Origin: Actinomycetota bacterium
Lineage (GTDB): Bacteria > Actinomycetota > Nitriliruptoria > Nitriliruptorales > JAHWKO01
Direction: 5' to 3'
Length of the DNA stretch: 64,000 bases
Assembly: GCA_019347675.1 (NCBI GenBank)
Contig: JAHWKW010000014.1
Span: 54,013 to 118,012 of the forward strand
The notes below the pieces were generated by a model. It searched no databases. It saw only the letters and a program-made list of their open reading frames with translations, and had not been told where the DNA came from. Of the stretch, positions 3,252-46,934 are shown one piece after another (the first letter of the stretch is position 1; every line of letters begins with the position of its first letter). Made by a program: the position numbers and the translations under genes.

Positions 3252-4238
3252 GTGGACGCCGGCCGGGTCCTCTACGTTCGACGCAGCGGGAACCCGGGGG
3301 AGTGCGTGTTCGGCCTCAACATCGATCCCAGCGCCGACCGGCTCGAGCTCGCCTTCGACCTCGTCGCCGTGGCGGAGGCGGCCGGACTGGACCTGGTGGC
3401 GGTCCAGGACCATCCCTACCACCGCCGCCACCTCGACACGTGGACCCTGCTCACGGTCCTGGCCAGCCGCACCGCCCGCGTCAACGTCATGCCCAACGTG
3501 GCCAACCTGCCCCTGCGGGGCCCACAGATGCTGGCCAAGAGCGCCGCGTCGCTCGCGTCCCTCACCGGCGGGAGGATCGAGTTGGGGATCGGCGCCGGGT
3601 CACAGTGGGACGCGGTCGCCGCCTACGGCGGCCCGCGGCGGTCTCCCGGCGAGGCGGTCGACGCGTTGGAAGAGGCCCTGGACGTGATCGAGGCGCTGTG
3701 GGACGGCGACCGCCGGTCCGCCACCGTCGAGGGTGTGCACTACCGGCTCGACGGGGCGCGGCCTGGACCGGTGCCTGGGGAACCGATCCGGATCTGGATC
3801 GGCGGGTACGGTCCGCGGATGCTGCGGCTGGTCGGCCGCCGCGCCGACGGCTGGACCGCATCATTATCCTTCGCCCCGCCCGAGCGCATCCCCGACATGC
3901 AGCGCACCGTCGATGAGGCCGCGCAGGAGGCCGGCCGCGAACCGGCTGGTGTCCGGCGCAACTACAACGTGATGGGGCGCCTGGACCCGGATGCCGATCG
4001 GCAGGAGGGTGACCGCCTGTCCGGCCCGGCCGACCACTGGGTCGACGTGCTGTGCCGCTACGCCGATGAGCTCCGCTTCGACACGTTGGTGTTCTGGCCG
4101 CTGGACGGCGACGAGGTCGACCAGGCCCGCCGCTTCGCTGGTGACGTGGTCCCGCGCGTCTGCGAGCGGTTGGGCGACCAGCACCCGTGTGTGGACGGGT
4201 CGGAGGCGGCACGCGAGCGTCCGGGCGGGTACTTGTGA
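3252..4238 (+). CDS. LLM class (luciferase-like) flavin/F420-dependent oxidoreductase
   Basis: Luciferase-like TIM-barrel signature (LVAVQDHPY, IELGIGAG, IWIGGYGPRMLRL). The start is uncertain; GTG 3306 before VFGLNIDP is an alternative. Confidence 0.7.
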   Translation: MDAGRVLYVRRSGNPGECVFGLNIDPSADRLELAFDLVAVAEAAGLDLVAVQDHPYHRRHLDTWTLLTVLASRTARVNVMPNVANLPLRGPQMLAKSAASLASLTGGRIELGIGAGSQWDAVAAYGGPRRSPGEAVDALEEALDVIEALWDGDRRSATVEGVHYRLDGARPGPVPGEPIRIWIGGYGPRMLRLVGRRADGWTASLSFAPPERIPDMQRTVDEAAQEAGREPAGVRRNYNVMGRLDPDADRQEGDRLSGPADHWVDVLCRYADELRFDTLVFWPLDGDEVDQARRFAGDVVPRVCERLGDQHPCVDGSEAARERPGGYL

Positions 4239-4242
4239 CCGG

Positions 4243-5145
4243 TCATGCCAGACGGCCGTGGTTGGCCTCCCACTCCCCGACCAGTTCGGACAGCCGGTGC
4301 AGCTGCGACAGCTCCGCGACGCACGGCCACAGGATGACCTCGTCCATGCCGACGTCGGCGGCGGCGCCGAGCCGGTCGCGGACCTGCTCGGTCGAGGCCA
4401 GCATCTGTTCGGCGATCCCCTCGGCCCGCTCGCCGGCGAACGCGTAGTAGTCGCGCAGGACGTCGCGGCCCCGCTCGACCGTGGCGCCGTCACCCAACGC
4501 CCAGTACGCGCAGCCCACGAACCGGGGCTTGCCTGCGCGGGCGGCATCCCGCCAGGCAGCCACCGCCTCGTCGAACAGTTCACGCGCCCGCGCGGGCGGC
4601 AGGGCGCCTGCGATGAAACCGTCCGCCAGCCGCCCCGCCCGGCGGGCGGCACGCGGCGAGTACCCGCCGATCAGGACCTCGGGGCCGCCCGGCCGTCGCG
4701 GCGGCGGGCCCACCCCAGCGACCCCCTCGACCGGCGGCTGGCCGCTCCACACCCGTCGCAGGACCTCCAGCTGTTCCTCGAAGTGATCGGCGCGGCTGTG
4801 GAAGTCCACCCGGGACCCTGCCGCCAGGTAGTCCTCCTCCCGCCCGCCGATCCCGAACCCGACGGTGAGCCGCCCGCCGGACAACGCGTCGATGCTGGCC
4901 GTCTGCTTGGCGAGGAGCCCGGCGTGGCGGATGGGTGCGACCAGCACGGTCGTCGCGAGCCGGATCCGGGCCGTCACGCCGGCGCAGGCCGCGAGCGCGA
5001 CCAACGGCTCGTAGTTGCCGTACGCGATCCGGTCGATCACCGCCAGTGTCGACAACGGCGTCTGGTCGGCAGCGCGTGCCCACTCCACGACGGTCGCGCC
5101 GGGCGTGCCGGGGACGTTGGCGGGCAACCCGACCCCTACCTGCAC
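4243..5145 (-). CDS. LLM class F420-dependent oxidoreductase
   Basis: Motifs VGVGLP, LTVGFGIGGREEDY and VLIGGYSPRAARRAG. I prefer GTG 5145 (GGGAG about 9 nt upstream, giving VQVGVGLP). The longest ORF start is 5190. Confidence 0.7.
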   Translation of the reverse strand: MQVGVGLPANVPGTPGATVVEWARAADQTPLSTLAVIDRIAYGNYEPLVALAACAGVTARIRLATTVLVAPIRHAGLLAKQTASIDALSGGRLTVGFGIGGREEDYLAAGSRVDFHSRADHFEEQLEVLRRVWSGQPPVEGVAGVGPPPRRPGGPEVLIGGYSPRAARRAGRLADGFIAGALPPARARELFDEAVAAWRDAARAGKPRFVGCAYWALGDGATVERGRDVLRDYYAFAGERAEGIAEQMLASTEQVRDRLGAAADVGMDEVILWPCVAELSQLHRLSELVGEWEANHGRLA

Positions 5146-5294
5146 GTCGCAACTCCCTGCCGAGCCGGCCGACCCTACAGCGTCGACCACGCCGCGGGGG
5201 GCGCCCGCCGACCGCCGCAGCGACGACGCCGGCGCCCCGTCCGACCGGGGCAGCCACGACGCCCGGCCTTGCCCACACTGGCCATAGACGACCG

Positions 5295-5627
5295 ATGGGA
5301 CTCCCCGTGGAACCGCAGCAGGTGTACGCCGAGCGAGGACTGGTGCAGATCATCGACGTCCGCGGCGGCCAGGAGTGGGACGCCGGCCACATCGAGGCGG
5401 CCCACCACATCCCGCTCGACGAGCTCCGTGAGCGGCTCGATGAGGTCAGCGCCGGCCGAAAGACCATCACCGTCGACCGCGACGGAAGCCGGAGCGAGGA
5501 AGCAGCCGAGCTGCTACGCCTCGAGGGGTTCGACGCCGAGGCGATGGCGGGAGGACTGGGCCGCTGGTTCGACGAGGAGCTGCCGCTGGTGGCGACGTCA
5601 GGTGGCAGCGGAGGCGTCGCCCGGTGA
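5295..5627 (+). CDS. single-domain rhodanese-like protein (active-site Cys replaced by Asp)
   Basis: IIDVRGGQEWDAGHIEAAHHIPL and a C-terminal GGLGRW are rhodanese-fold motifs. The ATG at 5295 lies inside track ORF 4935..5627, whose upstream part is Arg-rich junk. Confidence 0.7.
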   Translation: MGLPVEPQQVYAERGLVQIIDVRGGQEWDAGHIEAAHHIPLDELRERLDEVSAGRKTITVDRDGSRSEEAAELLRLEGFDAEAMAGGLGRWFDEELPLVATSGGSGGVAR

Positions 5628-5658
5628 ACCAACCGACCAACGCAAGGAAGGTGGTGCG

Positions 5659-6129
5659 ATGCCAGCCAGGACAGTGCATCGGTTCCTCGACGAGCACGGC
5701 GTCGACTACGAGGTCCAGTCCCACGAGCGGGTGGTGGACGCACAGCGCCTGGCCGCCACGGAACACGTCACCGGCTGGAAGGTCGCCAAGCCCGTGATGC
5801 TCATCGTCGGCGACGAGCTGACGATGGCGGTGGTGCCGGCGGCGGTGTCGGTCGACTTGGACAAGGTCCGCCGTGTCCTCGGCCGAGACGAGGTGCGGCT
5901 GGCACGTGAGGACGAGTTCGCCGACGCGTTCCCCGACTGCGAGCCTGGAGCGGAGCCACCGTTCGGGAACCTCTACGGCCTGCCGGTGCTGTTCGATCCG
6001 ACGCTCGGCGACCGTGACCAGCTGGTGTGCCGCGACGGGTCACACACCGAGACGGTCACTCTTGTCACCGACGACTACCTGCGGCTGGTGGAGCCGCGGA
6101 TCGTCGACATCAGCACCGCCGCCGGCTGA
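5659..6129 (+). CDS. YbaK/EbsC-type aminoacyl-tRNA deacylase domain protein
   Basis: ATG 5659 with GGAAGGTGG upstream. A 157-aa product with YbaK-like features (KPVMLIVGDELTMAVVP, PPFGNLYGLPV). Confidence 0.65.
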   Translation: MPARTVHRFLDEHGVDYEVQSHERVVDAQRLAATEHVTGWKVAKPVMLIVGDELTMAVVPAAVSVDLDKVRRVLGRDEVRLAREDEFADAFPDCEPGAEPPFGNLYGLPVLFDPTLGDRDQLVCRDGSHTETVTLVTDDYLRLVEPRIVDISTAAG

Positions 6130-6360: not shown

Positions 6361-7296
6361 ATGAGCATCGCGATGGTCTTCCCCGGGCAGGGGTCGCACC
6401 GCCAAGGGATGGCCTCAGCCTGGCGAGGCCACACCGCCTTCTCCACCTTCGCGGAGGTCGGTCGCGTCGCCGGCCTCGACGACTTCGTCGGCCTCGCCGA
6501 CGACCCGGACGCGTGCGCCGCCACCGACGTCGCCCAGCCAGCGGTGTTCGCGGTCGATGTCGCGGCGTGGCGGGCGCTCCGGGACGCGGGGGTCACCCCC
6601 GACGTGGTCGCCGGCCACAGCCTGGGTGAGATCGCTGCCGCGGTCGCCGCCCGCGCCCTGTCGGTGCCCGCCGGCGCATCCGTGGTGATCGAGCGCGGCC
6701 GTGCGTTCGCCGACGCGGTGTCGGAGAACCCGGGGAAGATGGCTGCGGTGCTGGGGCTCGACCGTGACACCGTGGAGAAGGCCATCGCCGGGATCGACGG
6801 CGTCATCGTCGCCAACGACAACGCCCCCGACCAGGTCGTCGTGTCGGGTCCGCCCGACGCGGTCGACGCGGCCGCGGAGGCCTGTCAGGAGGCCGGCGGG
6901 CGGGTCCGGGACCTCGACGTGGAGGGCGCGTTCCACACCGAGTTGATGGCGTCAGCCCGTGACCGGCTCGAGAAGCGGCTGGACGAGCTGCAGATGGTCG
7001 ACCCCGACGTCCCGCTGGTCTCGGGCGCCACCGCCGACCAGGCGACCACCGCCGACGACGTCCGGGAAGTGATCATCGACGGGGTGCTGTCCCCGGTTCG
7101 TTGGCGCGAGGTCCAGCAACGTCTGGCGGCCATGGAGACCCGGCTGGTGATCGAGGCCGGTCCCGGAGACGTTCTTTCCGGCTTGGCACGCCGGACCCTG
7201 TCCGATGACGTCGAGATCGTCTCGGTGGGGACCCCGGACGACCTCGACGCGGCGATCTCGGCCGCGACGAGCATCCGCAAGAGCGAGGAGGGATGA
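6361..7296 (+). CDS. fabD: malonyl CoA-acyl carrier protein transacylase
   Basis: N-terminus FPGQGSHRQGM, nucleophile GHSLGE, and a length of about 310 aa. Position as first gene of the fab cluster. Confidence 0.9.
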   Translation: MSIAMVFPGQGSHRQGMASAWRGHTAFSTFAEVGRVAGLDDFVGLADDPDACAATDVAQPAVFAVDVAAWRALRDAGVTPDVVAGHSLGEIAAAVAARALSVPAGASVVIERGRAFADAVSENPGKMAAVLGLDRDTVEKAIAGIDGVIVANDNAPDQVVVSGPPDAVDAAAEACQEAGGRVRDLDVEGAFHTELMASARDRLEKRLDELQMVDPDVPLVSGATADQATTADDVREVIIDGVLSPVRWREVQQRLAAMETRLVIEAGPGDVLSGLARRTLSDDVEIVSVGTPDDLDAAISAATSIRKSEEG

Positions 7297-7427
7297 CCGC
7301 GGCGCGCCCGCCCACGACCCGGAACACGATGAACACGATGAACACGATGAACACGATGGACGTGATGACGATGCCGACCTGCACAGCGCGACCCGGAGAG
7401 CGACCCGGAGAGGAAGTCCGTCGATGA
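7293..7427 (+). CDS. candidate 44-codon sORF (MTAARPPTTRNTMNTMNTMNTMDVMTMPTCTARPGERPGEEVRR) coupled to fabD and fabH
   Basis: ATG 7293 overlaps the fabD stop (ATGA). The frame stays open to TGA 7425-7427, which overlaps the fabH ATG (ATGA). GAGGAGGG lies directly upstream. It contains two tandem repeats with 3n unit lengths. Rare codons in the tail argue against coding. Confidence 0.3.
   Translation: MTAARPPTTRNTMNTMNTMNTMDVMTMPTCTARPGERPGEEVRR
7323..7358. repeat. perfect 9-bp tandem repeat AACACGATG x4 (degenerate copies continue to about 7373)
   Basis: Read directly from the sequence: aacacgatg aacacgatg aacacgatg aacacgatg gacgtgatg acgatg. Confidence 0.95.
7389..7412. repeat. perfect 12-bp tandem repeat CGACCCGGAGAG x2
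   Basis: Read directly from the sequence: cgacccggagag cgacccggagag, 12 nt before the fabH ATG. Confidence 0.9.
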
Positions 7428-8482
7428 CGATCCCGCTGACCACCGAACGCCCGTCGCGAGCCGAACTCGCGCCCGGTCGGCTGCCCGTGGGCATCATCGG
7501 GCTCGGGATCGCGGTGCCCGACCAGGTGGTCACCAACCACGACTGGGAAGAGGCACTCGACACCAGCGACGAGTGGATCCGCACCCGCACGGGGATCGTC
7601 GAGCGGCGGCGCATCGCCGAGGACGACGCGACCTCCGACCTGGCCATCCGGGCTGGCGAGGCGGCCCTGGCCGAAGCCGGCGTGGACGTCGACGACCTCG
7701 GCGCCATCATCGTGGCCACCACCACACCGGACTACATCTGCCCGCAGACCGCGCCGATCGTGGCGGCGGGCCTGGAAACCAACGTCGCGGCCTTCGACGT
7801 CGGCGCGGCGTGCAGCGGGTTCATCTACGGCCTGTCGGTTGCAGCCTCGACCGTCGTGGCCTACGACCCCCGGCCGATCCTGCTGATCGGCGCCGAGGCG
7901 ATGACCCGGCTGATGGACGACCAGGACCGCTCCACCGCGGTGCTGTTCGGCGACGGCGCCGGCGCGTGCGTGCTGGCCGCGGAGAGCGGGGGAGGCACGC
8001 TCGGGCCCTTCGAGATGGGCTCCGACGGTGACCTCGCCGACGCGCTGATCATCCCCGCCGGGGGCAGCCGCAACCCTGCCAGCCAGGAGACCGTCGCCGA
8101 GCGGCAGCACTACCTGACCATGAGCGGGAGCGAGATCTACAAGCACGCGGTGACCCGCATGACCTCGTCGGCTCGGTCGGTGCTGGACCGGGCCGGGATG
8201 GACATCGACGACATCGACCTGGTGGTCGGCCACCAGGCCAACGCCCGCATCCTCAACGCGGTGGCGGATCGGCTGGGCGTGGACGAAGATCGCGCGTTCA
8301 TCGACGTGGACCGCTATGGCAACACCTCAGCCGCCTCGATCCCCCTGGCGCTGGTCGACGCGCGTGAACAGGGCCTGCTGCCGGCCGGGGCGACCGTCCT
8401 GCTCACCGCGTTCGGCGCCGGCCTGACCTGGGCCTCGTGCCTGGTGACCTTCTCCGACGGAGACCCGGAGGTGACCCCGTGA
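7424..8482 (+). CDS. fabH: beta-ketoacyl-ACP synthase III
   Basis: SDEWIRTRTGIVERR, active-site context AACSGF, and C-terminal GHQANARIL and YGNTSAASIPLAL. ATG 7424 lies within track ORF 7205..8482. Confidence 0.9.
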   Translation: MTIPLTTERPSRAELAPGRLPVGIIGLGIAVPDQVVTNHDWEEALDTSDEWIRTRTGIVERRRIAEDDATSDLAIRAGEAALAEAGVDVDDLGAIIVATTTPDYICPQTAPIVAAGLETNVAAFDVGAACSGFIYGLSVAASTVVAYDPRPILLIGAEAMTRLMDDQDRSTAVLFGDGAGACVLAAESGGGTLGPFEMGSDGDLADALIIPAGGSRNPASQETVAERQHYLTMSGSEIYKHAVTRMTSSARSVLDRAGMDIDDIDLVVGHQANARILNAVADRLGVDEDRAFIDVDRYGNTSAASIPLALVDAREQGLLPAGATVLLTAFGAGLTWASCLVTFSDGDPEVTP

Positions 8483-9204
8483 GCGACCTGGTCGCGATCG
8501 TCAGCGGCGGCAGCGGCGGCATCGGGGCGGCCACGTGCCGCGCCCTGGCCGCCCAGGGCATGGCGGTGCTGGTCGGGTACGCGTCGAACCAGGACGGAGC
8601 CGAGAAGGTGGCCGCGTCCTGCGACGGCACGGCCGAGGCGATCCACCTCGACGTCACCGACGAGGACCAGGTCGACGCCGCCGTCGACCGCGCCGGCGAG
8701 CTCGGCGACCTCGGCGTGGTCGTCACCGCGCACGGGATCGCCGACGACGACCTGCTGATGCGGCTGACGCCGGAACGCTGGGACCGCACCATGGCGATCA
8801 ACCTGCGCGGGGTGTACCTGATCGCCCGTGCTGCGCTCCGCCCGATGGTCCGGAACCGCAGGGGCCGCATCATCAACATCGGCTCGTTCGTGGGCCTCCG
8901 CGGCAACGCCGGCCAGAGCGCCTACGGCGCGGCCAAGGCCGCGCTGACCGGGTTCAGCAAGTCGCTTGCCCGCGAGCTGGCCGGGAAGGGCGTCACCGTC
9001 AACGTGGTCGCGCCCGGGTTCGTCGAGACGTCGATGACCGACCAACTCCCCGACGATCTGCTCGAGAGCTACCTCGAACGCACTCCGATCGGCCGGCCCG
9101 TCGCGGCCGAGGAGGTCGCGGCTGCCGTGAGGTTCCTCGCATCCGAGGAGGCCGCGGCGATCACCGGAGCGGTGATCCCCGTCGACGGCGGTGCCGGCAT
9201 GTGA
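8479..9204 (+). CDS. fabG: 3-oxoacyl-ACP reductase (SDR)
   Basis: GTG 8479 overlaps the fabH stop (GTGA). SDR motifs SGGSGGIGAA, NIGS and YGAAKAAL. Confidence 0.85.
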   Translation: MSDLVAIVSGGSGGIGAATCRALAAQGMAVLVGYASNQDGAEKVAASCDGTAEAIHLDVTDEDQVDAAVDRAGELGDLGVVVTAHGIADDDLLMRLTPERWDRTMAINLRGVYLIARAALRPMVRNRRGRIINIGSFVGLRGNAGQSAYGAAKAALTGFSKSLARELAGKGVTVNVVAPGFVETSMTDQLPDDLLESYLERTPIGRPVAAEEVAAAVRFLASEEAAAITGAVIPVDGGAGM

Positions 9205-9244
9205 CCGACACACCAGAACCTGCCCATAACCGAGAGGAGCAACG

Positions 9245-9490
9245 ATGAACCAGGAGCTGTACGAGACCGTGAAGTCCATCCTCGTGAACACGTTCCAGGT
9301 GCCGGAGGAGGACGTGAGCCCCGATGCCACGTTCGAATCCCTGGACCTCGACTCGCTCGACCTGGTCGAGTTCACGCTGGCGCTCGAAGAAGAGGTCGGC
9401 GTCGAGATCGAGGACGAGGAGGCCGAGGACATCCGCACGGTCGAAGACGCCGTGACCAAGATCGAAGAGAAGCAGAAGGTGCAAACGTGA
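9245..9490 (+). CDS. acpP: acyl carrier protein
   Basis: An 81-aa acidic protein with the phosphopantetheine-attachment motif LDLDSLD. GAGAGGAG RBS upstream. Confidence 0.9.
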   Translation: MNQELYETVKSILVNTFQVPEEDVSPDATFESLDLDSLDLVEFTLALEEEVGVEIEDEEAEDIRTVEDAVTKIEEKQKVQT

Positions 9491-10737
9491 CCGACCGTCA
9501 ACAGCCCGAGATCGTCGTCACCGGCATCGGCCTGTTCGCTCCCGGAGGGGCCAACGTCGACGCGGCGTGGAAGACGGTCCTGGAGGGGACCCCCGCCGCA
9601 GCGCACGACCCCACGCTGGAGGAAGCCGGCCTCGACGTCACCGTCTCGTGCCGCACGCCCGAGTTCGATCCCTCCGAGGAGATCGGTCGGCGTGCCGCTC
9701 GGCGGCTCGACCGCTTCGTGCAGCTGGCGCTCCTGGCCAGCCGCGAAGCGATCGACCGATCGGGTCTTGACCTGCCGACCGGCGAGGACCCCGAGGAGTT
9801 CGGCGACCGCGTCGGCATCGCGTTCGGCTGCGGGATCGGCGGGGTGATCACCTGGGAGGAGCAGCACGCCTCCTTCATCGAGAAGAACAAGGTCAGCCCG
9901 TTCATGATCCCCAAGATGCTGTCGAACATGGCTGCCGGCCAGGTCGCCATCGAGCTCGGCGCACGCGGCCCGAACCTGACCGTCAACACCGCCTGTGCAG
10001 CCAGCGCCACGGCGATCCACATCGCACGTGACCTGCTGGCATCGGGGACGGCCGACGCGATGCTCGCCGGCGGGACCGAAGCGTCGATCACGGCACTTTC
10101 CACCGCCGGGTTCGCCAAGATGGGGGCGCTGTCCAAGCGCAAGGACGAGACGGCGTCGCGGCCGTTCGATGCCGACCGTGACGGCTTCGTGATGGGTGAA
10201 GGCGCCGGGATGCTGGTGCTGGAGCGGGCAGAGGACGCCCGGGCCCGCGGCGCGACCCCGCTGGCGGTGCTGGCCGGAGCCGGCAGCTCCGCCGATGCGC
10301 ACCACCAGACCTCACCACCCGAGGAAGGCGGCGGCGCGGTGCTCGCCATGCAACGTGCTCTCGCCGACGCCGGCATGGATCGGGGTGACATCGACCACAT
10401 CAACGCGCACGGCACATCCACGCCGCTCAACGACAAGTCGGAGTCGATCGCGATCCGACGGGTGTTCGGTGACGCCACCGACCAGGTGGGTGTCAGCTCC
10501 ACCAAGGGGGTCACCGGACACACACTGGGCGCGGCCGGGGGGATCGAGGCGGTGTTCACCGTCCTCGCCCTGCGTGACGGCGTGATCCCACCCACCGCGA
10601 ACCTCGAACAGCTCGACGACGAGATCGACATCGACGTCGTGCATGGTGAGGCGCGCCAGGGCGAGGTCCGTGCCGCGCTGTCCAACTCGTTCGGCTTCGG
10701 GGGGCAGAACGCGTCACTGCTGTTCCGCAAGGTCTGA
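9487..10737 (+). CDS. fabF: beta-ketoacyl-ACP synthase II
   Basis: GTG 9487 overlaps the acpP stop (GTGA). KAS motifs NTACAASATA, INAHGTSTPLND and NSFGFGGQN. Confidence 0.9.
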   Translation: MTDRQQPEIVVTGIGLFAPGGANVDAAWKTVLEGTPAAAHDPTLEEAGLDVTVSCRTPEFDPSEEIGRRAARRLDRFVQLALLASREAIDRSGLDLPTGEDPEEFGDRVGIAFGCGIGGVITWEEQHASFIEKNKVSPFMIPKMLSNMAAGQVAIELGARGPNLTVNTACAASATAIHIARDLLASGTADAMLAGGTEASITALSTAGFAKMGALSKRKDETASRPFDADRDGFVMGEGAGMLVLERAEDARARGATPLAVLAGAGSSADAHHQTSPPEEGGGAVLAMQRALADAGMDRGDIDHINAHGTSTPLNDKSESIAIRRVFGDATDQVGVSSTKGVTGHTLGAAGGIEAVFTVLALRDGVIPPTANLEQLDDEIDIDVVHGEARQGEVRAALSNSFGFGGQNASLLFRKV

Positions 10738-11398: not shown

Positions 11399-12175
11399 GT
11401 GCTGCTCGACGGAAAACGACTGCTCGTGACCGGCGTCCTCGATCCCCGATCGATCGCCTTCCACATCGCCCGCCTGGCCCAGGAGCAAGGCGCCGAGCTG
11501 CTGCTGACGGGCTTCGGGAAGAGCCGGCGACTGACCGAACGCACCGCGAAGAAGCTGGACCCGACCCCGGACGTCCTGGAGCTCGACGTCACCAAGCCCG
11601 ACGACATCGAGGGGGTCACCAAGGAGCTGCAAGAGCGGTGGGGAGGCCTCGACGGGCTCGTGCATGCGATCGCGTTCGCGCCCGACTCGGCGTTGGGCGG
11701 CGGGTTCCTCACCGCCCCGTGGGAGGACGTGGCCCCGGCCTTCCACATCTCGACCTACTCCCTGGCGGCGCTGGGCAGCGCGTTCGCGCCCCTGTTCCGG
11801 GAAGCCGACGGCGGGGCGATCATCGGGATGGACTTCGACGCGTCGGTGGCCTGGCCGGCGTACGACTGGATGGGTGTGGCGAAGGCCGGGCTCGAGTCGT
11901 GCGCCCGGTACCTGGCCCGTGACCTCGGCCCCGACGGTGTCCGCGTCAACCTGATCGCGGCTGGGCCGCTGAAGACGGTCGCGGCCAAGAGCATCGAGGG
12001 GTTCGAGGGGTTCGACCGCTGGGGCGAGCACGCACCGCTGGGCTGGGACAGCGACGACCCGGCGCCGGTCGCGCGGACGGCGTGCATGATGCTGTCTGAC
12101 TGGGCGGACGGGATCACCGGGGAGATCGTGCACGTCGACGGCGGCGCGCACGCCATCGGCGGGACAGCGGGCTGA
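11399..12175 (+). CDS. fabI: enoyl-ACP reductase (FabI/InhA type)
   Basis: GTG 11399 with AAGGAG overlapping the plsC stop. Features GKRLLVTGV, SIAFHIA and the Y..M..AK catalytic region (YDWMGVAKAGLE). Confidence 0.85.
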   Translation: MLLDGKRLLVTGVLDPRSIAFHIARLAQEQGAELLLTGFGKSRRLTERTAKKLDPTPDVLELDVTKPDDIEGVTKELQERWGGLDGLVHAIAFAPDSALGGGFLTAPWEDVAPAFHISTYSLAALGSAFAPLFREADGGAIIGMDFDASVAWPAYDWMGVAKAGLESCARYLARDLGPDGVRVNLIAAGPLKTVAAKSIEGFEGFDRWGEHAPLGWDSDDPAPVARTACMMLSDWADGITGEIVHVDGGAHAIGGTAG

Positions 12176-15100
12176 TGAGCGACTTCAAGCGTCTGGCGAT
12201 CGTCAACCGCGGCGAAGCGGCGATGCGGCTGCTGCATGCCGTCGCCGAGTACAACCGCGAGCACGGCACCGAGATCCGCACGATCGCGTTCTACACCGAC
12301 CCTGACGAGGCATCGTGGTACGTGCGCCAGGCCGACGAGGCGTACGGGCTGGGCCCGGCCATGACGTTCGACCCGAACGAAGGTGAACGCCGGCACACGT
12401 TCCTGCGTTACGACGTCCTCGCCGACGCGCTCCGGGCCACCGAGGCGGACGCCGCGTGGGTGGGTTGGGGTTTCGTCTCCGAACAGGCGGGGTTCGCCCG
12501 GCTGTGCGAGGACGAGCTAGGGATCACGTTCATCGGTCCCCCCGCCGACGTGATCGATCTCATGGGTGACAAGGTCGCCGCCAAACAGCTCGCCGAGGAC
12601 GCCGACGTCCCGGTGGTGCCGTGGAGCGACGGACCGGTCGACGACGCCGAGGAGGCAGCAGCACACGCCGACAAGCTCGGCTACCCGGTCCTGGTGAAGG
12701 CCGCCTCCGGCGGCGGCGGCCGCGGGATCCGGGTCGCAGCCGACCCCGACGAGCTGCGCGACGCGTTCCAGTCCGCCCGAGACGAAGGCCAGCGGACCTT
12801 CGGCGACCCGACGGTCTTCCTGGAGCAGATGCTCGGGGACGCCCGCCACGTCGAGGCGCAGATCATCGCCGACCGCCACGGCAACGTCTGGGCGGTCGGG
12901 GTGCGCGACTGCAGCGTGCAGCGGCGCAAGCAGAAGGTGCTGGAGGAATCGTCGTCGACGGCGCTGTCACCCGAACAGGACCAGGAGATCCGTGACGCGG
13001 CGGCGCGGATGGCCAGCGCCGCCGGGTACACCAACGCCGGGACGATCGAGTTCCTGTTCGAACCCGAGCGACAGCGGTTCTGCTTCATGGAGGTCAACAC
13101 CCGGCTGCAGGTGGAGCATCCGGTCACCGAGCTGGTCACCGGCCTGGACCTGGTCAAGCTGCAGCTGCACGTCGCACGGGGCGGGCGCCTCGAAGGCGAG
13201 CCGCCGCCGACCAAAGGCCACGCGATCGAGGCGCGCCTGTACGCCGAGGATCCCGAGAACGACTTCAGTCCCGCCCCTGGCCGGGTCGCCGAACTGCGTT
13301 TCCCCGCCGGTCCAGGGATGCGGGTCGAAACCGGCGTCACGCAGGGCGACGAGATCGCGACCGACTACGACGCGATGATCGCGAAGATCATCGGCTACGG
13401 CAGCGACCGTGGCGAGGCGATGGCGCGCCTGCGCCGCGGACTGTCGCAATCGTTGGCGATCATCGACGGTGGGGCGACCAACAAGGGGTTCCTGCTGAGC
13501 CTGGTCGACCACCCCGACGTCGTGGAGGGCCAGCTCGACACCGGTTGGCTGGACCGGCTGACCGAGGAGGGCGGGTTCCTCCCGGAACCCGCCGCCGCGG
13601 CGGTCCTGCTGGCTGCGGTGGAAGGCTACGAGGTCGAGCACGAGGCCGACCGCACGAACTTTCACGCGTCGGCGAGGCGGGGGCGGCCCGAAGCCGAACC
13701 CGGGACTGGCAAGAGCATCGAACTGCGCTACCGCGGGACGTCCTACCGCACCACCGTGTACCGGCTCGGGGCACGCGCCTACCGGGTCGACACGCCGGAT
13801 GGTCACGTCAGCGTGGAACTCGATCGGTTGGGCCGGTACGAGCGGCGCCTGACCTACGACAAACGGCACATCAAGGCGGTCGCCGACGTGCAGGGCCCCA
13901 CCTACAAGGTCGAGATCGAAGGGGTTCCCCACCGCGTGACACGCGACGAGGGCGGCGTCATGCGCTCCCCGTCACCAGCGGTCGTGATCTCCCTGGCCGT
14001 GTCACCCGGCGACCGCGTCGAAGCCGGCCAGACGGTCTGCGTGCTCGAGGCGATGAAGATGGAGACCGCGGTCGAGGCGCCGTACGCCGGCCGCGTGCGC
14101 TCGATCGACGTCAACGAGAACGTCCAGGTCGACGCCGGCGCCATCCTGGCCCGGATCGAACGCGAGGAAGAGGAACAGGAGAGCCCCGAGGAACGGGTCC
14201 AGTTCGCGGCCGACTCGGCCACCCGGTTCGACGGGGAATCCCCGGCGGCACGCGCACAGCGTTTCTTCGACCGCCTCCGCGCCTACTTGTTGGGCTACGA
14301 CCTCGACCAGGACGAGGTCGACGAGCTGTTCGCACAGCAAGAAGCCGTCTGTGCGGCGCTGCCGCAGGGTGACCCGGAGCTGCTCGCCCGCGAGGACGAG
14401 GTGCTCGCGATCTTCGCCGACCTCGGTGCGCTGTCGCGCCGCCAACCGGACCAGACCACCGAGGGAGAACTGGTCCGCAGCCCCCAGGAGTACCTGTTCA
14501 CCTACTTGCGGTCCCCCGACCGCGCCGAGGAGCTGCTTCCGCGCTCGTTCCTCGACCGCCTGGAACGGGCGCTGGCGCGCTACGGCGTCGACGGGCTGGA
14601 ACGCACACCGGAGCTCGAAGACGCGCTGCTGTGGATGTTCCGTGCGTTCAGGCGTATCCAGGACCTGACCCCCACGATCGACACCATCCTGGAACGCCAC
14701 CTCGAGCACCGCGCCCCCGTGGCGCGCGACGACGACGACTACCGGGCTCTCCTCGACCGCCTGATCTCCGTGGCGCAGGGTCGCTACGAGACGGTCAGCG
14801 ACCTGGCGCGGGAGGTGCGTCACCAGGCGTTCGACCGGCCGCTGCTGGAGGAAAAACGCGAAGAGACGTACGCGCAGATGGAGGAGGAGGTGGCGGCGCT
14901 GGCCGCCGACCCGGACCCCGATCAGCGTGAGCAGCACCTCGAGCGGCTGGTGCATTGCCCACAGCCACTGCGCGGACGGCTCCTGCGGTGGTACCAGGAG
15001 TCGGATGGGGAGCTGCGCGAAGCGGTCCTGGAGGTCCGCGCCCGTCGCTACCACCGTGCCCGCCACCTGCGTGATCTCCACGTGGAGTGGTTCGATGACC

Positions 15101-17733
15101 AGCCGCTGGCGATCGCCGACTACGAGCACGAGGACGAGAGCTACCACCTGGTGGTGGCCTACGCCCACGACGACGGGTTGGTGGGCGTCGCCGACCGGGT
15201 ACGGCGTCACATCGCCGAGGTCGACCCCGACCGGGCGGTGGTGGTCGATGTCGCCCTGGCACGGCCGGGTCCCAAGCGCGACGGTGACGTGATGGCCGAG
15301 GAGGTCCGCGAGCAGCTCGCGGACGTCGACTTCGGACGTCGACTGCACCGCCTCGACGTGATGGTGACCAGCAGCGGGCCGGGGCCCGAGCACCGCCGCA
15401 CGCAGCACTTCACGTTCCGTCAGGACGACGACGGTTTCCACGAGGAGACGCTGTACCGCAACCTCCACCCGATGCTCGGCAAGCGCCTGGGGCTGTGGAG
15501 ACTGTCGAACTTCCAGATCCGGCGGCTGCCGTCGGTCGAGGACGTGTACCTGTTCCACGGTGTGGGGCGAGACAACGAGAACGACGAGCGCCTGTTCGCG
15601 CTGGCGGAGGTCCGCGACCTCACGGCGGTCACCGACGACGACGGGGACGTCGTCTCCCTCCCGCACCTCGAGCGGATGCTGATGGAGGCGCTGTCGGGCA
15701 TCCGTCGCTTCCAGACCCGACGCCCACCGGGTGAACGCCTGCTCAACAACCTCGTCATGCTGCACATCGAGCCGCCGCTCGACTTCCCAACGAGCGTGCT
15801 GCGCGACCTCGCCCGTGAGCTCGCCCCCGCCACGGTGGGGCTCGGCCTGGAGAAGGTGATCGCGTTCGGTCGTACCCGCGACCCCGCCAGCGGTGAGACG
15901 CAAGAGATCGAGCTCCACATCGAGAACGTGGCCGAGACCGGCATCGTGGTCCGCGAGGAGGAACCGTCCGACGAGCCCATCCCGACCTTGTCGGAGTACC
16001 GCCAGCGGGTCCTCAAGACCCGCCGCTACGGCTCGGTCTACCCGTACGAGCTGATCGACCAGCTCACGCCACGCGACGAGGCGGTGTCGGACTTCCCACC
16101 CGGCAGCTTCACCGAGCACGACCTCGACGGGGACGGGCGCCTGGTCCCGGTCGACCGACCCTACGGGCAGAACGAGGCCAGCATCGTGGTCGGCCTGATC
16201 CGCAACGTCACCGAGGCGGTGCCCGACGGGATGGAACGGGTCATGGTTCTCAGCGACCCGTCGATGAGCTTGGGGTCGATGGCCGAGGCCGAGTGCAGGC
16301 GACTGATCGCCGCGCTGGATCTGGCCGAGTCGCGGCAGGTTCCTGTCGAGTGGTTCGCGGAGTCGTCCGGAGCGCGCATCGCGATGGACACCGGCGTGGA
16401 GAACATGGACTGGATCGGGGGGGTGCTGCGCCGCATCGTCGAGTTCACGCAGGGCGGCGGCGAGCTGAACATCATCGTGACGGGCATCAACGTCGGCGCC
16501 CAGCCGTACTTCAACGCCGAAGCGACCATGCTGATGCACACCGCGGGGATCCTGATCATGGTCCCCGACAGCGCCATGGTGCTCACCGGGAAGCGGGCGT
16601 TGGACTTCTCCGGGGGTGTCTCGGCCGAGGACAACATCGGCATCGGCGGCTACGAGAGGATCATGGGCCCCAACGGCGAGGCGCAGTACTGGGCGCCGAG
16701 CGTGGAGGCCGCCTGCCAGCTGCTGTTCCGCCACTACGACCACACGTACGTGGTGCCCGGGGAGCGCTTCCCGCCTCGGGTGCAGACCTCCGACCCCCAC
16801 GACCGCGACATCCGCGACTTCCCACACGAACAGGTGGAGGGCTCGGACTTCGACCGGGTCGGAGAGATCTTCTCCGACGAACGCAACCCCGAGCGGAAGA
16901 AGCCGTTCGCGATCCGGTCGGTGATGCGTGCGGTCAGCGACCAGGATCGCGAACCGATCGAGCGCTGGTTCGCCTGGCGCGACGCCGAGGGCGCCGTGGT
17001 GTGGGACGCCCACGTGGGCGGCATCCCGGTGTGCATGCTGGGGTTCGAGTCGCACACGTTGCCCCGCTACGGCTTCCTGCCCGCCGATGGGCCATCGGCG
17101 TGGACGTCGGGGACACTCTTCCCGCAGTCGTCGAAGAAGGTGGCCCGCGCCATCAACGCCGCTTCCGGCAACCGGCCCGTGGTGGTGTTGGCCAACCTGT
17201 CGGGCTTCGACGGGTCGCCGGAGTCGATGCGCAAGTGGCAGCTGGAGTTCGGCGCGGAGATCGGCCGTGCGGTGGTCAACTTCCGTGGGCCGCTCGTGTT
17301 CTGCGTGATCTCGCGGTACCACGGCGGTGCGTTCGTGGTGTTCTCCAAGTGGCTGAACGAGGGGTTGGAGGTCGCCGCTGTGGAGGGCTCGTACGCGTCG
17401 GTGATCGGCGGGACGCCGGCAGCCGCCGTGGTGTTCTCCAGGGAGGTGGATCGCCGCACGCACGAGGACGAACGTGTCGCGTCGCTGCGTCGGGAGCTGG
17501 AGGAAGCCCCGGAGGGGGAGAAGGCGAAGCTGCAGACCGAGCTCAACGAGGTCGAGGAAGAGGTCCATGCCGAGAAGATGCGCGAGGTGGCCAACGAGTT
17601 CGACAGCATCCACAGCATCGAACGCGCGCGGGACGTCGGCTCGGTGGATCACATCATCGCCCCCGCGGAACTGCGGCCGTACGTGATCGATGCGGTCGAG
17701 CGCGGCATCGCCGCCACACGCGAAGGCAGGTGA
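12175..17733 (+). CDS. single-chain multidomain acyl/acetyl-CoA carboxylase (biotin carboxylase + BCCP + large central region + carboxyltransferase)
   Basis: ATG 12175 overlaps the fabI stop (TGATG). It has an N-terminal ATP-grasp biotin carboxylase (NRGEAAMRLL, EVNTRLQVEHPVTE). The biotinylation motif EAMKME has its Lys codon at 14056-14058. An about 600-aa central region follows. The C-terminal carboxyltransferase carries YPYELIDQL and ANLSGFDGSPESMRKWQLEFGAEI. The reading frame is an uninterrupted 1852 aa. Confidence 0.85.
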   Translation: MSDFKRLAIVNRGEAAMRLLHAVAEYNREHGTEIRTIAFYTDPDEASWYVRQADEAYGLGPAMTFDPNEGERRHTFLRYDVLADALRATEADAAWVGWGFVSEQAGFARLCEDELGITFIGPPADVIDLMGDKVAAKQLAEDADVPVVPWSDGPVDDAEEAAAHADKLGYPVLVKAASGGGGRGIRVAADPDELRDAFQSARDEGQRTFGDPTVFLEQMLGDARHVEAQIIADRHGNVWAVGVRDCSVQRRKQKVLEESSSTALSPEQDQEIRDAAARMASAAGYTNAGTIEFLFEPERQRFCFMEVNTRLQVEHPVTELVTGLDLVKLQLHVARGGRLEGEPPPTKGHAIEARLYAEDPENDFSPAPGRVAELRFPAGPGMRVETGVTQGDEIATDYDAMIAKIIGYGSDRGEAMARLRRGLSQSLAIIDGGATNKGFLLSLVDHPDVVEGQLDTGWLDRLTEEGGFLPEPAAAAVLLAAVEGYEVEHEADRTNFHASARRGRPEAEPGTGKSIELRYRGTSYRTTVYRLGARAYRVDTPDGHVSVELDRLGRYERRLTYDKRHIKAVADVQGPTYKVEIEGVPHRVTRDEGGVMRSPSPAVVISLAVSPGDRVEAGQTVCVLEAMKMETAVEAPYAGRVRSIDVNENVQVDAGAILARIEREEEEQESPEERVQFAADSATRFDGESPAARAQRFFDRLRAYLLGYDLDQDEVDELFAQQEAVCAALPQGDPELLAREDEVLAIFADLGALSRRQPDQTTEGELVRSPQEYLFTYLRSPDRAEELLPRSFLDRLERALARYGVDGLERTPELEDALLWMFRAFRRIQDLTPTIDTILERHLEHRAPVARDDDDYRALLDRLISVAQGRYETVSDLAREVRHQAFDRPLLEEKREETYAQMEEEVAALAADPDPDQREQHLERLVHCPQPLRGRLLRWYQESDGELREAVLEVRARRYHRARHLRDLHVEWFDDQPLAIADYEHEDESYHLVVAYAHDDGLVGVADRVRRHIAEVDPDRAVVVDVALARPGPKRDGDVMAEEVREQLADVDFGRRLHRLDVMVTSSGPGPEHRRTQHFTFRQDDDGFHEETLYRNLHPMLGKRLGLWRLSNFQIRRLPSVEDVYLFHGVGRDNENDERLFALAEVRDLTAVTDDDGDVVSLPHLERMLMEALSGIRRFQTRRPPGERLLNNLVMLHIEPPLDFPTSVLRDLARELAPATVGLGLEKVIAFGRTRDPASGETQEIELHIENVAETGIVVREEEPSDEPIPTLSEYRQRVLKTRRYGSVYPYELIDQLTPRDEAVSDFPPGSFTEHDLDGDGRLVPVDRPYGQNEASIVVGLIRNVTEAVPDGMERVMVLSDPSMSLGSMAEAECRRLIAALDLAESRQVPVEWFAESSGARIAMDTGVENMDWIGGVLRRIVEFTQGGGELNIIVTGINVGAQPYFNAEATMLMHTAGILIMVPDSAMVLTGKRALDFSGGVSAEDNIGIGGYERIMGPNGEAQYWAPSVEAACQLLFRHYDHTYVVPGERFPPRVQTSDPHDRDIRDFPHEQVEGSDFDRVGEIFSDERNPERKKPFAIRSVMRAVSDQDREPIERWFAWRDAEGAVVWDAHVGGIPVCMLGFESHTLPRYGFLPADGPSAWTSGTLFPQSSKKVARAINAASGNRPVVVLANLSGFDGSPESMRKWQLEFGAEIGRAVVNFRGPLVFCVISRYHGGAFVVFSKWLNEGLEVAAVEGSYASVIGGTPAAAVVFSREVDRRTHEDERVASLRRELEEAPEGEKAKLQTELNEVEEEVHAEKMREVANEFDSIHSIERARDVGSVDHIIAPAELRPYVIDAVERGIAATREGR

Positions 17734-44155: not shown

Positions 44156-45124
44156 GTGGAGCGGATGTCGACCAGTCAACCGACCCGCACCCAGACGCCG
44201 GCGGCCCGGACCGCTGCGCCGCTGCCACCGTCCGCGACGGTCGCCGGGTTGGTGTTGGGCGTCGTCGCCGTGTCCTCCGCGGCAGTCCTGATCCGGGTCG
44301 CTGACGCACACCCGCTGGCGATCGCGTTCTGGCGCTGCCTGGGTGGGGCGGTGGCGCTGGGTCCGTTCGCGTTGCGTGCCCGCCGGGGGGCGCCGCCACT
44401 GGAAGCGGCACAGCGCCGGCAGATCGCCGGGGCGGGCGTGCTCCTGGCGGTGCACTTCGCGCTGTGGATCACGTCGCTGGACTTCACAACCGTCGCGTCG
44501 TCGGTGACGCTGGTGACCTTGTCGCCGGTGTTCGTCGGCGTGGGTGCCGCGGCCCTCCTGCGCGAGCCCCCGACCCGACGCGCCTGGATCGGCATGGCGA
44601 TCACCATGGCCGGGGCGTTGGTCATCGGCGTGGGCGACCTGTCAGACATCGCACTCGGCCGGGGCGCGCTGTTCGGTGACGTTCTGGCCTTCGGTGGGGC
44701 CATCGCCGTGGCCGGGTACCTCCTGGCGGGGCGGGCAGCGCGCCGCCGCCTCCCCGTCTCGGTGTACGCCGGCGGCGTCTACGCGGTGGCGGCCGTCATC
44801 CTGCTGCCCGCGGCCGTGGTCGCCGGCGCACGACTGACGGGGTACGGCGCCGTGACCTGGCTGGCCTTGCTGGCCCTGGTCGTCGGACCACAGCTGTTGG
44901 GCCACACGGTCTTCAACGCGCTGCTGTCGACGGTCACCGCCACGGTGGTGTCGATCGTCGTGCTCGCCGAGCCGGTCGGCGCGACCCTGCTCGCGTGGGT
45001 CTTCCTCGACGAGTTGCCCAGCGCCCTGTTCTGGGTCGGCGCCCCGCTGATCCTGGCCGGGGTCTTCACGGCGACCGCGCGCCGACGGGGCCCGGCCGCG
45101 CGCCCCGAACCGCCGCCGGCGTGA
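44156..45124 (+). CDS. DMT superfamily (EamA) transporter
   Basis: Ten hydrophobic helices in two EamA-like halves. The start is either GTG 44156 or ATG 44165. Confidence 0.75.
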   Translation: MERMSTSQPTRTQTPAARTAAPLPPSATVAGLVLGVVAVSSAAVLIRVADAHPLAIAFWRCLGGAVALGPFALRARRGAPPLEAAQRRQIAGAGVLLAVHFALWITSLDFTTVASSVTLVTLSPVFVGVGAAALLREPPTRRAWIGMAITMAGALVIGVGDLSDIALGRGALFGDVLAFGGAIAVAGYLLAGRAARRRLPVSVYAGGVYAVAAVILLPAAVVAGARLTGYGAVTWLALLALVVGPQLLGHTVFNALLSTVTATVVSIVVLAEPVGATLLAWVFLDELPSALFWVGAPLILAGVFTATARRRGPAARPEPPPA

Positions 45125-45176
45125 GCGCAGTAGCGTCAGCGTCACCGACCGTCTTCAGCGAGGTGGAGAGGACCGG

Positions 45177-46934
45177 ATGTCGACCAGCAATGACCTGCAC
45201 GGCACGTTGACCATCCCGGAGGGCATCCAGGCGATCCCCGCGTCATCCCGCGACGAGCTCGACGCGGCCGTCGAGGCGGTGGGAGCCCGCAAGGGCGACT
45301 GGGTCGCCGTCGATGTGAACGAGCGAATCCGGATCCTCCAGCAGCTGATCCACGACACCCTCGAAGAGGCGGAGCGCTGGGCGGACGCGGGGACCGCCGC
45401 CAAGGGCATCGACCCGGAGTCGAACTTCGCCGGTGAGGAGTGGCTGTACGGCCCGGCACTGGTCGTGCGCAACCTCCGGCTGCTGAAGCGGGCGCTGCAG
45501 GACATCGCCGAGCACGGCCGGCCGCAGCTGCCCGGCGAGCCCGACACCCGTCACGACGGCCAGGTGGTCGCCCCCGTTTTCCCCACCGACGTGATCGACC
45601 GGCTGCTGTTCCTGGGTTTCACCGCCGAGGTGTGGATGCAGCCCGACGTGACGCTCGAGGGCCTGCCCGACAGCCAGGCGGTGATCTACCAGCCGGGCCA
45701 CCACCACGACGGCAAGGTGGCGCTGGTCCTCGGGGCGGGAAACGTCGGCGTGATCCCCCCCACGGACGTGCTGTACAAGCTCTTCGCCGAGGACCAGGTC
45801 GTGGTGTTGAAGATGAACCCCGTCAACGACTACCTGGGGCCGATCCTCGAGGACGCCTTCGATGCGCTGATCGACCGCGGCTTCTTGAGGATCGTGTACG
45901 GGGGTGTGGACGCGGGCCGCTACCTCACGCAGCACCCGGGCGTCGACACCCTCCACATCACCGGCTCGGACAAGACCCACGACGCGATCGTCTTCGGCGC
46001 CGGCGCGGAGGGCCGTCGCAACAAGCAGCAGCGCACCCCGAAACTCGACAAGCCGATCACGAGCGAACTGGGGAGCATCACCCCGGTCATCGTGGTTCCC
46101 GGTCCGTGGTCAGACGGTGACCTGGCGTTCCACGGCGAGAACATCGCGTCGATGCTGATGGGCAACGCCGGGTTCAACTGCGTCACCGCCCGGCTGATCA
46201 TCACACACCGCCGCTGGGGCAAGCGAGGGGCCCTCCTCGACGCGATCCGCGACGTCCTGGAGCGCACCACGCTGCGATACCCCTACTACCCCGGCGCCCG
46301 CGAACGGTTCGAGCGGTTCGTCGAGGCCCACCCGGAGGCCGAGACGTACGGGGAGGACGGGTCGGAGGGGGTGCCGTGGACGTTCATCCCGGGGGTCGCA
46401 CCGACCGACGAGGACGACATCGTCTTCACGATGGAGCCGTTCGCCGGGATCTTCGCCGAGACGGCCCTCGACGCGCCGCCGTCCATCCCCGACTTCCTCG
46501 CACGGGCGACTGAGCTGTGCAACGACCGGCTGTGGGGCACGCTCGCCGCCTCGATCATCGTCCACCCGCGGTCGCTGAACGACCCGGCCGTCGCTGACGC
46601 GGTCGACCGGGCCGTGGCCGACCTGCGCTACGGGACGGTCGTGATCAACCACTTCACGGGCGTTCCGTTCGGGATGTTCTCGACCCCGTGGGGCGCCTAC
46701 CCCGGCCACGAGCTCCATGACATCCAGTCCGGACGGGGCGTGGTGCACAACACCTACCTGTTCGACCAGCCGCAGAAGTCGGTCGTGCGTGGACCCTTCC
46801 GGGTGTGGCCCAGACCAGTGTGGTTCGCCAACCACCGCAACGCCGAAGCGACGGTGCGCGAGCTGACCCACGTGTTCGCCGACCCGTCGCTGCACAGGCT
46901 GCCGAAGCTGATGTGGGAGGCGGCCCAGGGGTGA
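45177..46934 (+). CDS. aldehyde dehydrogenase family protein (long, about 585 aa form)
   Basis: NAGFNCVTARLII (catalytic Cys context), ITGSDKTHDAIVFG and ELGSITPVIV (catalytic Glu context). Confidence 0.75.
   Translation: MSTSNDLHGTLTIPEGIQAIPASSRDELDAAVEAVGARKGDWVAVDVNERIRILQQLIHDTLEEAERWADAGTAAKGIDPESNFAGEEWLYGPALVVRNLRLLKRALQDIAEHGRPQLPGEPDTRHDGQVVAPVFPTDVIDRLLFLGFTAEVWMQPDVTLEGLPDSQAVIYQPGHHHDGKVALVLGAGNVGVIPPTDVLYKLFAEDQVVVLKMNPVNDYLGPILEDAFDALIDRGFLRIVYGGVDAGRYLTQHPGVDTLHITGSDKTHDAIVFGAGAEGRRNKQQRTPKLDKPITSELGSITPVIVVPGPWSDGDLAFHGENIASMLMGNAGFNCVTARLIITHRRWGKRGALLDAIRDVLERTTLRYPYYPGARERFERFVEAHPEAETYGEDGSEGVPWTFIPGVAPTDEDDIVFTMEPFAGIFAETALDAPPSIPDFLARATELCNDRLWGTLAASIIVHPRSLNDPAVADAVDRAVADLRYGTVVINHFTGVPFGMFSTPWGAYPGHELHDIQSGRGVVHNTYLFDQPQKSVVRGPFRVWPRPVWFANHRNAEATVRELTHVFADPSLHRLPKLMWEAAQG

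Follow-up and report, generated by a model that had tools for sequence, protein, structure and literature searches.

A 44-codon open reading frame joined to both fabD and fabH by ATGA overlaps in a Nitriliruptoria fatty-acid synthase operon: a candidate ribosome bridge

In Mycobacterium tuberculosis, small open reading frames (ORFs) with an NUGA overlap to the next gene are abundant, and coupling by termination and reinitiation has been proposed for them (bioRxiv 10.1101/2022.06.01.494293). For uPPE2, upstream of ppe2, the AUGA-coupled upstream ORF (uORF) was shown to be an indispensable relay, or "landing pad" (Kipkorir et al. 2024, PMC11260477), and a review remarks that the delivery of ribosomes may be the only reason for short ORFs to exist (PMC12548453). 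ORFs in MIRU intergenic repeats, such as those of the senX3-regX3 spacer, are coupled at -4 nt (PMC12548453). Here we describe a 44-codon small ORF (sORF) in the 127-nt spacer between the fabD stop and the fabH start of an Actinomycetota bacterium of the class Nitriliruptoria, in a 64,000-nt stretch of contig JAHWKW010000014.1 (the window, whose numbering is used throughout). FabH homologs place the contig, which is from a metagenome-assembled genome (MAG), in or near the order Nitriliruptorales. The MIRU ORFs of the senX3-regX3 spacer reportedly overlap both neighboring genes, a finding ascribed to Supply et al. in 1997. There is, in our view, about an even chance that the fabD-fabH spacer encodes a young, lineage-specific, translated sORF that bridges ribosomes from fabD to fabH by termination-reinitiation. 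A preliminary description of the window knew of no such element in described fab operons; a claim that nothing of the sort is on record does not hold, as NUGA-coupled small ORFs (10.1101/2022.06.01.494293; PMC11260477) and MIRU ORFs (PMC12548453) are known. The sORF probably belongs to this known kind, the sORFs that bridge termination and reinitiation, rather than to a new type of element.

The sORF (7293-7427, + strand) begins at ATG 7293-7295, which overlaps the fabD stop TGA 7294-7296 (ggATGAcc), and its own TGA at 7425-7427 overlaps the fabH ATG at 7424-7426 (cgATGAcg). The upstream overlap is produced by the last sense codon of fabD, a rare GGA (7.6 per 1000 codons). The predicted peptide is MTAARPPTTRNTMNTMNTMNTMDVMTMPTCTARPGERPGEEVRR, with 7 Met; ATG thus makes up 7 of 44 codons, compared with 14.4 per 1000 in the genes of the window, and there are 9 Thr and 4 Asn codons. 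The middle of the frame is a perfect 9-bp tandem repeat, AACACGATG x4 (7323-7358, + strand), coding for (Asn-Thr-Met)4, which Tandem Repeats Finder reports as a period-9 array at 7322-7358 with 4.1 copies and 100% match; the degenerate units GACGTGATG and ACGATG follow it to position 7373. Closer to fabH lies a perfect 12-bp tandem repeat, CGACCCGGAGAG x2 (7389-7412, + strand; period-12 array 7388-7412, 2.1 copies, 100% match), each unit of which holds a GGAGAG core resembling a Shine-Dalgarno (SD) site. The purine tract GGAGAGGAAG (7407-7416, + strand), at the 3' end of the 12-bp repeat, ends 7 nt before the fabH ATG at 7424 and is the likely SD of fabH. A further SD-like stretch, GAGGAGGG (7285-7292, + strand), lies in the 3' end of fabD directly against the sORF ATG. 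The preliminary description had given the ORF with its two overlaps, both perfect repeats, the seven ATG codons and the abutting GAGGAGGG, and these are confirmed; direct reading of the sequence also bears out its statement that the fabD frame meets a TGA in every 9-bp unit. Absent from it were the purine tract before fabH, the high background frequency of open frames (62%, see below), and the fabH frame, which is also open over the entire spacer, back to 7205, reading ...EHDEHDEHDEHD... Both junctions have the hexamer GATGAC in common (7291-7296 and 7422-7427), which is statistically unremarkable and might have been left by duplication of an earlier direct overlap between fabD and fabH, or between these genes and the gene X described below.

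The sORF shares with uPPE2 and the NUGA-coupled uORFs an actinobacterial host, small size, lack of annotation, an AUGA over the downstream start, and a proposed role in handing on ribosomes for which the peptide is presumably dispensable. As in the NUGA-coupled small ORFs, the overlap with the next start is 4 nt, and frame and junction are retained in three relatives (L002, L005, and L006). uPPE2, however, is part of a 5' leader, downstream of a riboswitch, and PPE2 has no SD, whereas the sORF is located inside an operon and fabH has one; unlike uPPE2, the sORF is also locked to the upstream stop and has a body of tandem repeats. Translation and coupling of uPPE2 have been shown experimentally, whereas the sORF is known here from sequence alone. 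The likeness to MIRU lies in copy-variable tandem repeats within an actinobacterial intra-operon gap, a co-directional ORF, -4 nt coupling downstream, and the idea that the ORF preserves expression across inserted sequence. The fabD-fabH spacer is likewise an intra-operon tandem repeat with a co-directional ORF overlapping the flanking stop and start. In contrast to MIRU units, which are 46-101 bp long, dispersed, and apparently mobile, the units of the sORF are 9 and 12 bp and show no sign of mobility; a blastn search of the spacer against the 64-kb window found the spacer itself only, the other matches being no longer than 13-16 nt. Identity of the sORF with MIRU is excluded by this unit size alone, with no direct comparison to a MIRU sequence. 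Ordinary ATGA/GTGA coupling (PMC12548453; Huber et al. 2019, cited in PMC11260477) has the same junction chemistry, but the sORF chains two such junctions via a 44-codon ORF of no recognizable protein family, replacing a direct fabD/fabH overlap.

Three close relatives are present in the collections, namely L002 (GCA_030155625.1), L005 (GCA_030776725.1), and L006 (a Logan contig, SRR16016015), with FabH proteins that are 89-94% identical to that of the window; the next FabH relatives are at most 69% identical. The spacer is therefore present on four contigs, in three distinct versions. Alignment of the spacers, as proposed in the preliminary description, showed an uninterrupted frame and ATGA junctions at both ends in all three relatives. 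These have 2 copies of AACACGATG compared with 4 in the window, a difference of 18 nt, resulting in a 38-codon sORF. The expectation that slippage in multiples of three would preserve the frame thus stands insofar as copies vary in whole 9-bp units (2 versus 4), but it does not amount to independent evidence, since any slippage of a 9-bp unit is a multiple of three. Besides this indel, the only variable sites in the spacer are 7310 (G/A), 7313 (C/T), and 7394 (C/T), the last being a C>T change within the first 12-bp copy in L002 and L005. Each of these sites is the third base of a Pro codon when read in the sORF frame, where the change is silent; read in the fabH frame, the same changes are non-synonymous (A>T, H>Y, and R>W). 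The probability that three random transitions in the spacer would all be synonymous in the sORF frame is P = 0.025. Third positions of the sORF have changed at a rate of 3/36, similar to that of the neighboring genes (8-12%), and first and second positions at 0/73.

The comparison of window positions 6361-10737 with L002 (2956-7315) showed mosaic divergence, ranging from 1 to 15 differences per 109 nt. Third-position differences between the two are 11-12% in fabD and fabH, 1-2% in fabG and acpP, and 9% in fabF. From the spacer onward L006 resembles L002, whereas in fabD it resembles the window, and it looks recombinant. All of this suggests frequent homologous recombination within this population. 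A "conserved island" at 7237-7458 was considered as a sign of selection and dropped as unreliable, since the divergence is mosaic. Searches for further close relatives were made in several ways. The first 90 residues of FabH, used as a query for fragmentary relatives, retrieved only proteins of at most 73% identity (the best-scoring at most 62%), a scan of the genome collection with FabH gave only an unrelated Bdellovibrionota locus among the matches listed, and the sORF core written as a codon-degenerate DNA pattern had no match in metagenomes. A metagenome scan with the FabH alignment yielded 80 loci; together with the six earlier loci, 76 of 86 have no fabD upstream of fabH, so that this set is not usable as a background.

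The composition of the frame is coding-like over most of its length. Over codons 1-30 of the sORF every third position is G or C, so that the GC content at third codon positions (GC3) is 100%, compared with 88-95% in the fab genes and an overall GC content of 66% in the spacer; with the repeat counted once, the chance of this is 0.66^21, or about 2e-4. The codon log-odds over the same codons are 0.31-0.41 (real-gene mean 0.49), and the codon score of the whole sORF is above more than 99% of out-of-frame gene windows. The 5' two-thirds of the sORF thus look coding, and the 3' third looks like a ribosome-binding region. The frame is open in 17% of dinucleotide shuffles of the spacer. Codons ending in A make up 4.6% of all codons in the window, and 4 of 41 confident genes end in A-TGA; in 3 of these 4 the stop lies on a candidate overlapping start. 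These three starts are those of the sORF, of a 452-aa ORF, and of an 1852-aa ORF (ATG one base after the stop, 1-nt overlap). From the components A-ending codons (4.6%), frame match (1/3), A-starting codons, as needed for the second codon of fabH (15-30%), and open frame (17-62%), a double ATGA lock would arise by pure chance with a probability of roughly 4e-4 to 3e-3, a figure that would be too low if the junctions came down from the ancestral gene X. No other sORF in the window is locked at both ends. An ORF of 29 codons at 45121-45210 (+ strand; GTGA on the upstream stop, end inside the 5' end of the next gene) had looked like a further case but was rejected as a chance ORF, since the downstream gene begins at ATG 45177 behind a good SD.

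Translation of the sORF is plausible given its anatomy, its retention in three relatives, its coding-like substitutions, and its coding-like GC3. Reinitiation at either junction, and an effect on the level of FabH, are what we infer beyond this. Ribosomes ending fabD at UGA 7294-7296 would restart on the overlapping AUG at 7293, read 44 codons over the 127-nt gap, stop at UGA 7425-7427 on the fabH AUG, and restart there, aided by the GGAGAGGAAG SD tract. The outcome would be that fabH translation is tied to fabD translation and that a long unstructured spacer is kept covered by ribosomes. The (Asn-Thr-Met)n middle would be slippage-prone, and a change in 9-bp copy number would leave the frame and both junctions intact. 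The peptide itself, being of low complexity and variable length, is probably non-functional or unimportant.

In more distant relatives the slot between fabD and fabH is occupied differently. At 57-69% FabH identity (51% for L066) it holds either a 66-nt hairpin spacer or a gene for 70-92 aa. This conserved gene, here called gene X, lies between fabD and fabH in six Nitriliruptoria-like loci: L004:3780-4010, L087:1196-1426, L090:1475-1705, L091:1574-1804 (Egicoccus sp.), L092:1562-1795 (Salsipaludibacter albus), and the more remote L066:1609-1887. The Pfam family Biotin_lipoyl (PF00364) is found above its curated cut-off in the products from L004 and L087 (28.8-30.2 bits versus 22.1), and the gene X profile matches solved biotinyl domains in the PDB, including the transcarboxylase 1.3S subunit with an E value of 8e-11; the hairpin tip, to which biotin or lipoate would be attached, lacks a lysine in gene X. 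The start of gene X forms an ATGA or GTGA on the fabD stop in 4 of the 6 loci (L004, L087, L090, and L066), with rare CGA as the last fabD codon in three of these four. At its other end, gene X runs 16 nt into fabH in L004 and L087 and shares a GTGA with the fabH start in L091 and L066. The X-carrying relatives also have GAGGAGG or GGGAGGG 8-10 nt before the X start, similar to GAGGAGGG. Gene X and the sORF are therefore alike in occupying the same slot, in the ATGA/GTGA on the fabD stop (four loci), and in a 3' end that overlaps or adjoins the fabH start. They differ in that gene X encodes a conserved domain protein to which the sORF has no similarity: tblastn and blastn gave only noise, and hhalign of the X profile against the peptide gave a probability of 0.2%. 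The sORF was accordingly rejected as a remnant of gene X, with no similarity left at the protein or DNA level. The idea that it derives from the C-terminal tail of a once longer FabD, now read in a different frame, was also dropped, as all matches were sub-significant (for example ARREEALLEEV versus ARPGERPGEEV, E = 2.6).

The 66-67-nt fabD-fabH spacers are those of L003 (2080-2145) and L088 (907-973), a sister group also without gene X. Directly after the fabD stop they carry a perfect GC-rich hairpin, GGTCACCGGCC-ACC-GGCCGGTGACC, with no T-run. The hairpin spacer is a different solution for the same slot; homology with the spacer of the window was rejected, as the alignment was forced. Judging from this distribution, gene X is probably ancestral and was lost both in the clade of the window and in the L003/L088 clade. 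The sORF would then fill the slot of a biotinyl-domain-like gene that shows the same coupling to fabD in 4 of the 6 X loci. Uncommon traits of the sORF are that it is locked to both neighbors within a core metabolic operon and that it replaces a lost gene.

A relay role, which had been among those put forward in the preliminary description, is favored by the silent substitutions, the GC3, and the retained frame, but a number of observations weigh against a translated ribosome bridge. The sORF is restricted to one shallow clade and is not kept at FabH identities of 69% or below, and the L003/L088 clade manages with a spacer that has neither an ORF nor an ATGA at the fabD stop. With three substitution events and one indel, the evidence from comparison is thin, and given the mosaic divergence and the recombinant-looking L006, low divergence of the spacer is unreliable as a sign of constraint. 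Openness alone means little, since 62% of 44-codon reading windows are stop-free in this window of about 71% GC. The tail of the sORF (codons 31-44) has a GC3 of 43% and scores like out-of-frame reading; its rare codons, to which the preliminary description had already drawn attention, are confirmed (CGA 3.9, ACA 2.4, GGA 7.6, and GAA 11.7 per 1000), and are plausibly explained by the GGAGAGGAAG tract of fabH. With the tail included, the codon score falls below that of about 97% of real-gene windows and is about equal to that of the fabH frame over the spacer. The distance from GAGGAGGG to the sORF ATG is shorter than that of a canonical SD site, and fabH has its own well-spaced SD, so that coupling to the sORF is not required. 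The sORF is unannotated in the source record, where the FabD and FabH accessions are consecutive; it is called as a gene on 0 of the 4 contigs carrying the spacer, and its peptide has no match in a collection of 5.8 billion protein clusters, nor any Pfam or NCBIfam match. Finally, the sORF sits in the slot of a formerly coupled small gene, and its ATGA junctions could therefore be inherited rather than newly selected. This last point leads to the main rival explanation, which we regard as possible, with a probability clearly below even, and in which the spacer is an untranslated or incidentally translated scar of the lost gene X, the ATGAs are leftovers, and the filler was expanded by slippage and is open by chance. 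Such a scar would agree with the presence of gene X in the same slot in six loci, its ATGA/GTGA start on the fabD stop in four, and its 4-nt or 16-nt overlap with the fabH start in four. Open frames are common here (62% of 44-codon windows, and two of the three forward frames over the spacer), and the poor codons of the tail, the SD of fabH itself, the failure of gene callers to predict the sORF, and the ORF-free spacer of the L003/L088 clade, which also lost gene X, all fit. A remnant is, however, not demonstrated, as no residual similarity to X exists, and L003 and L088, also without X, did not retain the ATGA at the fabD stop. A GC3 of 100% over 30 codons is unexpected for filler of 66% GC, as are 3 of 3 substitutions that are silent in the sORF frame (P = 0.025).

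The remaining explanations place the function in the RNA, in FabH, or in the codons of the repeat. Compared with dinucleotide shuffles, the RNA of the spacer is significantly less structured, whichever length variant is folded: z is +2.1 and +2.4, and folding is as good or better in 197/200 and 200/200 of the shuffles. Such weak folding fits a translated or initiation region and, together with the negative Rfam and terminator searches given below, makes a structured riboswitch or attenuator unlikely and an open, ribosome-accessible region likely. It also agrees with an RNA-only element, an A- and purine-rich unstructured standby or loading platform for ribosomes that would initiate independently at fabH, with its SD-like GGAGAG duplicated. 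The strong AT skew of the spacer (+0.46 to +0.57), the dip in GC content to 60-65%, and the two GGAGAG cores of the 12-bp repeat just upstream of fabH point the same way. Such an element nevertheless leaves unexplained the ATGA at the fabD stop, the in-frame link between the junctions, the GC3 periodicity, and changes confined to third positions; as the sole explanation we consider it unlikely, and it is compatible with a bridge sORF, not exclusive of it. That the spacer is instead an N-terminal extension of FabH, with an acidic EHDEHD... reading, or a structured regulatory RNA is essentially excluded by the data. In favor of an extension, the fabH frame has no stop from 7205 to the end of the spacer, but it contains no ATG, GTG, or TTG between the fabD stop and 7424, and all three substitutions are non-synonymous in it, including the R>W change. 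Homologous FabH N-termini have the same length as that from the 7424 start; from codon 12 onward, moreover, changes in the fabH frame are of the synonymous type, which supports the same start. As to a structured RNA, folding is weaker than in shuffles and Rfam gave nothing above noise in the spacer, the best hit being sR42 with 17.7 bits versus a gathering score of 38. Leader peptides with codon runs, among them the polycysteine sORFs of mycobacteria, act through amino-acid sensing, and the Met, Thr, and Asn codons of the sORF, all of the aspartate family, could likewise throttle FabH relative to FabD at scarcity, with repeat number setting the sensitivity. The 7 ATG codons among 44 (versus 14.4 per 1000), the 9 Thr and 4 Asn codons, and the copy number of 4 versus 2 among close relatives are in line with such a leader. 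The codon enrichment, however, simply reflects which codons a single 9-bp unit contains, multiplied by slippage, and no known logic ties the supply of Met, Thr, or Asn to FabH. Neither alternative terminator and antiterminator structures nor a Rho site, as expected of a leader-peptide attenuator, were found in the spacer; a promoter and terminator scan gave no such site, and G is slightly commoner than C, so that the spacer is not rut-like. As fabH can start from its own SD and the element occurs in one shallow clade only, we regard a sensing leader as quite improbable. Slightly less probable still is a tunable gate, in which transit through (Asn-Thr-Met)n would depend on aminoacyl-tRNAs of the aspartate family and the 9-bp copy number would reset the throttling of FabH versus FabD. 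If it existed, it would be a heritable stoichiometry dial, adjustable by repeat length, in a core lipid-synthesis operon, FabH being the initiating condensing enzyme.

If the sORF is translated as a ribosome bridge, it would provide a natural example of an operon that kept its ribosome relay after the loss of an internal gene, and what has been found for NUGA-coupled uORFs and MIRU ORFs in mycobacteria would extend to the distant class Nitriliruptoria and to a core fatty-acid operon. It would also illustrate how functional small ORFs are overlooked by standard annotation. If it is untranslated, it is merely a slippage-expanded spacer with no wider consequence.

The spacer is part of an actinobacterial type II fatty-acid synthase operon with the order fabD-spacer-fabH-fabG-acpP-fabF-acyltransferase-short-chain reductase, assigned by Pfam and confirmed by the relatives. 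The identities given earlier for the two flanking genes are likewise supported by Pfam. fabD (6361-7296, + strand) encodes a malonyl-CoA:acyl carrier protein (ACP) transacylase of 311 aa (Acyl_transf_1, E 1e-39; exact protein MBW3578213.1), and fabH (7424-8482, + strand) a ketoacyl-ACP synthase III of 352 aa (ACP_syn_III and ACP_syn_III_C; exact protein MBW3578214.1). They are followed by a fabG-like short-chain reductase gene (8479-9204, + strand), whose junction sequence shows a GTGA overlap with the fabH end, by acpP (9245-9490, + strand; PP-binding), and by fabF (9487-10737, + strand; ketoacyl-synt), which has a GTGA overlap with acpP, again from the junction sequence. The GTGA overlaps at fabH/fabG and acpP/fabF indicate that 4-nt overlaps are in routine use in this operon and lineage. 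The fabG ortholog (241 aa, adh_short) has a 4-nt overlap with the fabH end in L002, L004, L005, and L090-L092; in L003 it follows fabH after a gap of 46 nt. An ORF at 8535-9248 was discarded as the gene of the fabH-acpP gap, as it is in the wrong frame and the real gene is fabG at 8479-9204. Upstream of fabD, a 712-aa ORF (3991-6129, + strand) has a Pfam tRNA_edit (aminoacyl-tRNA editing) match confined to residues 578-699, and the true gene within it is probably much shorter. In L002 and L005 other genes (rhodanese, luciferase-like) are found at this position, so synteny is lost just 5' of fabD. Downstream, the 1852-aa ORF (12175-17733, + strand) begins within the stop of the reductase gene before it, by the 1-nt overlap noted above. 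Its ortholog in L003 has biotin carboxylase, biotinyl, ACC_central, and carboxyltransferase domains, indicating that the 1852-aa ORF is a single-chain acyl-CoA carboxylase directly 3' of the fab genes. Gene X of L087 matches the biotinyl domain of this ORF at 14008-14139 (E 9e-6).

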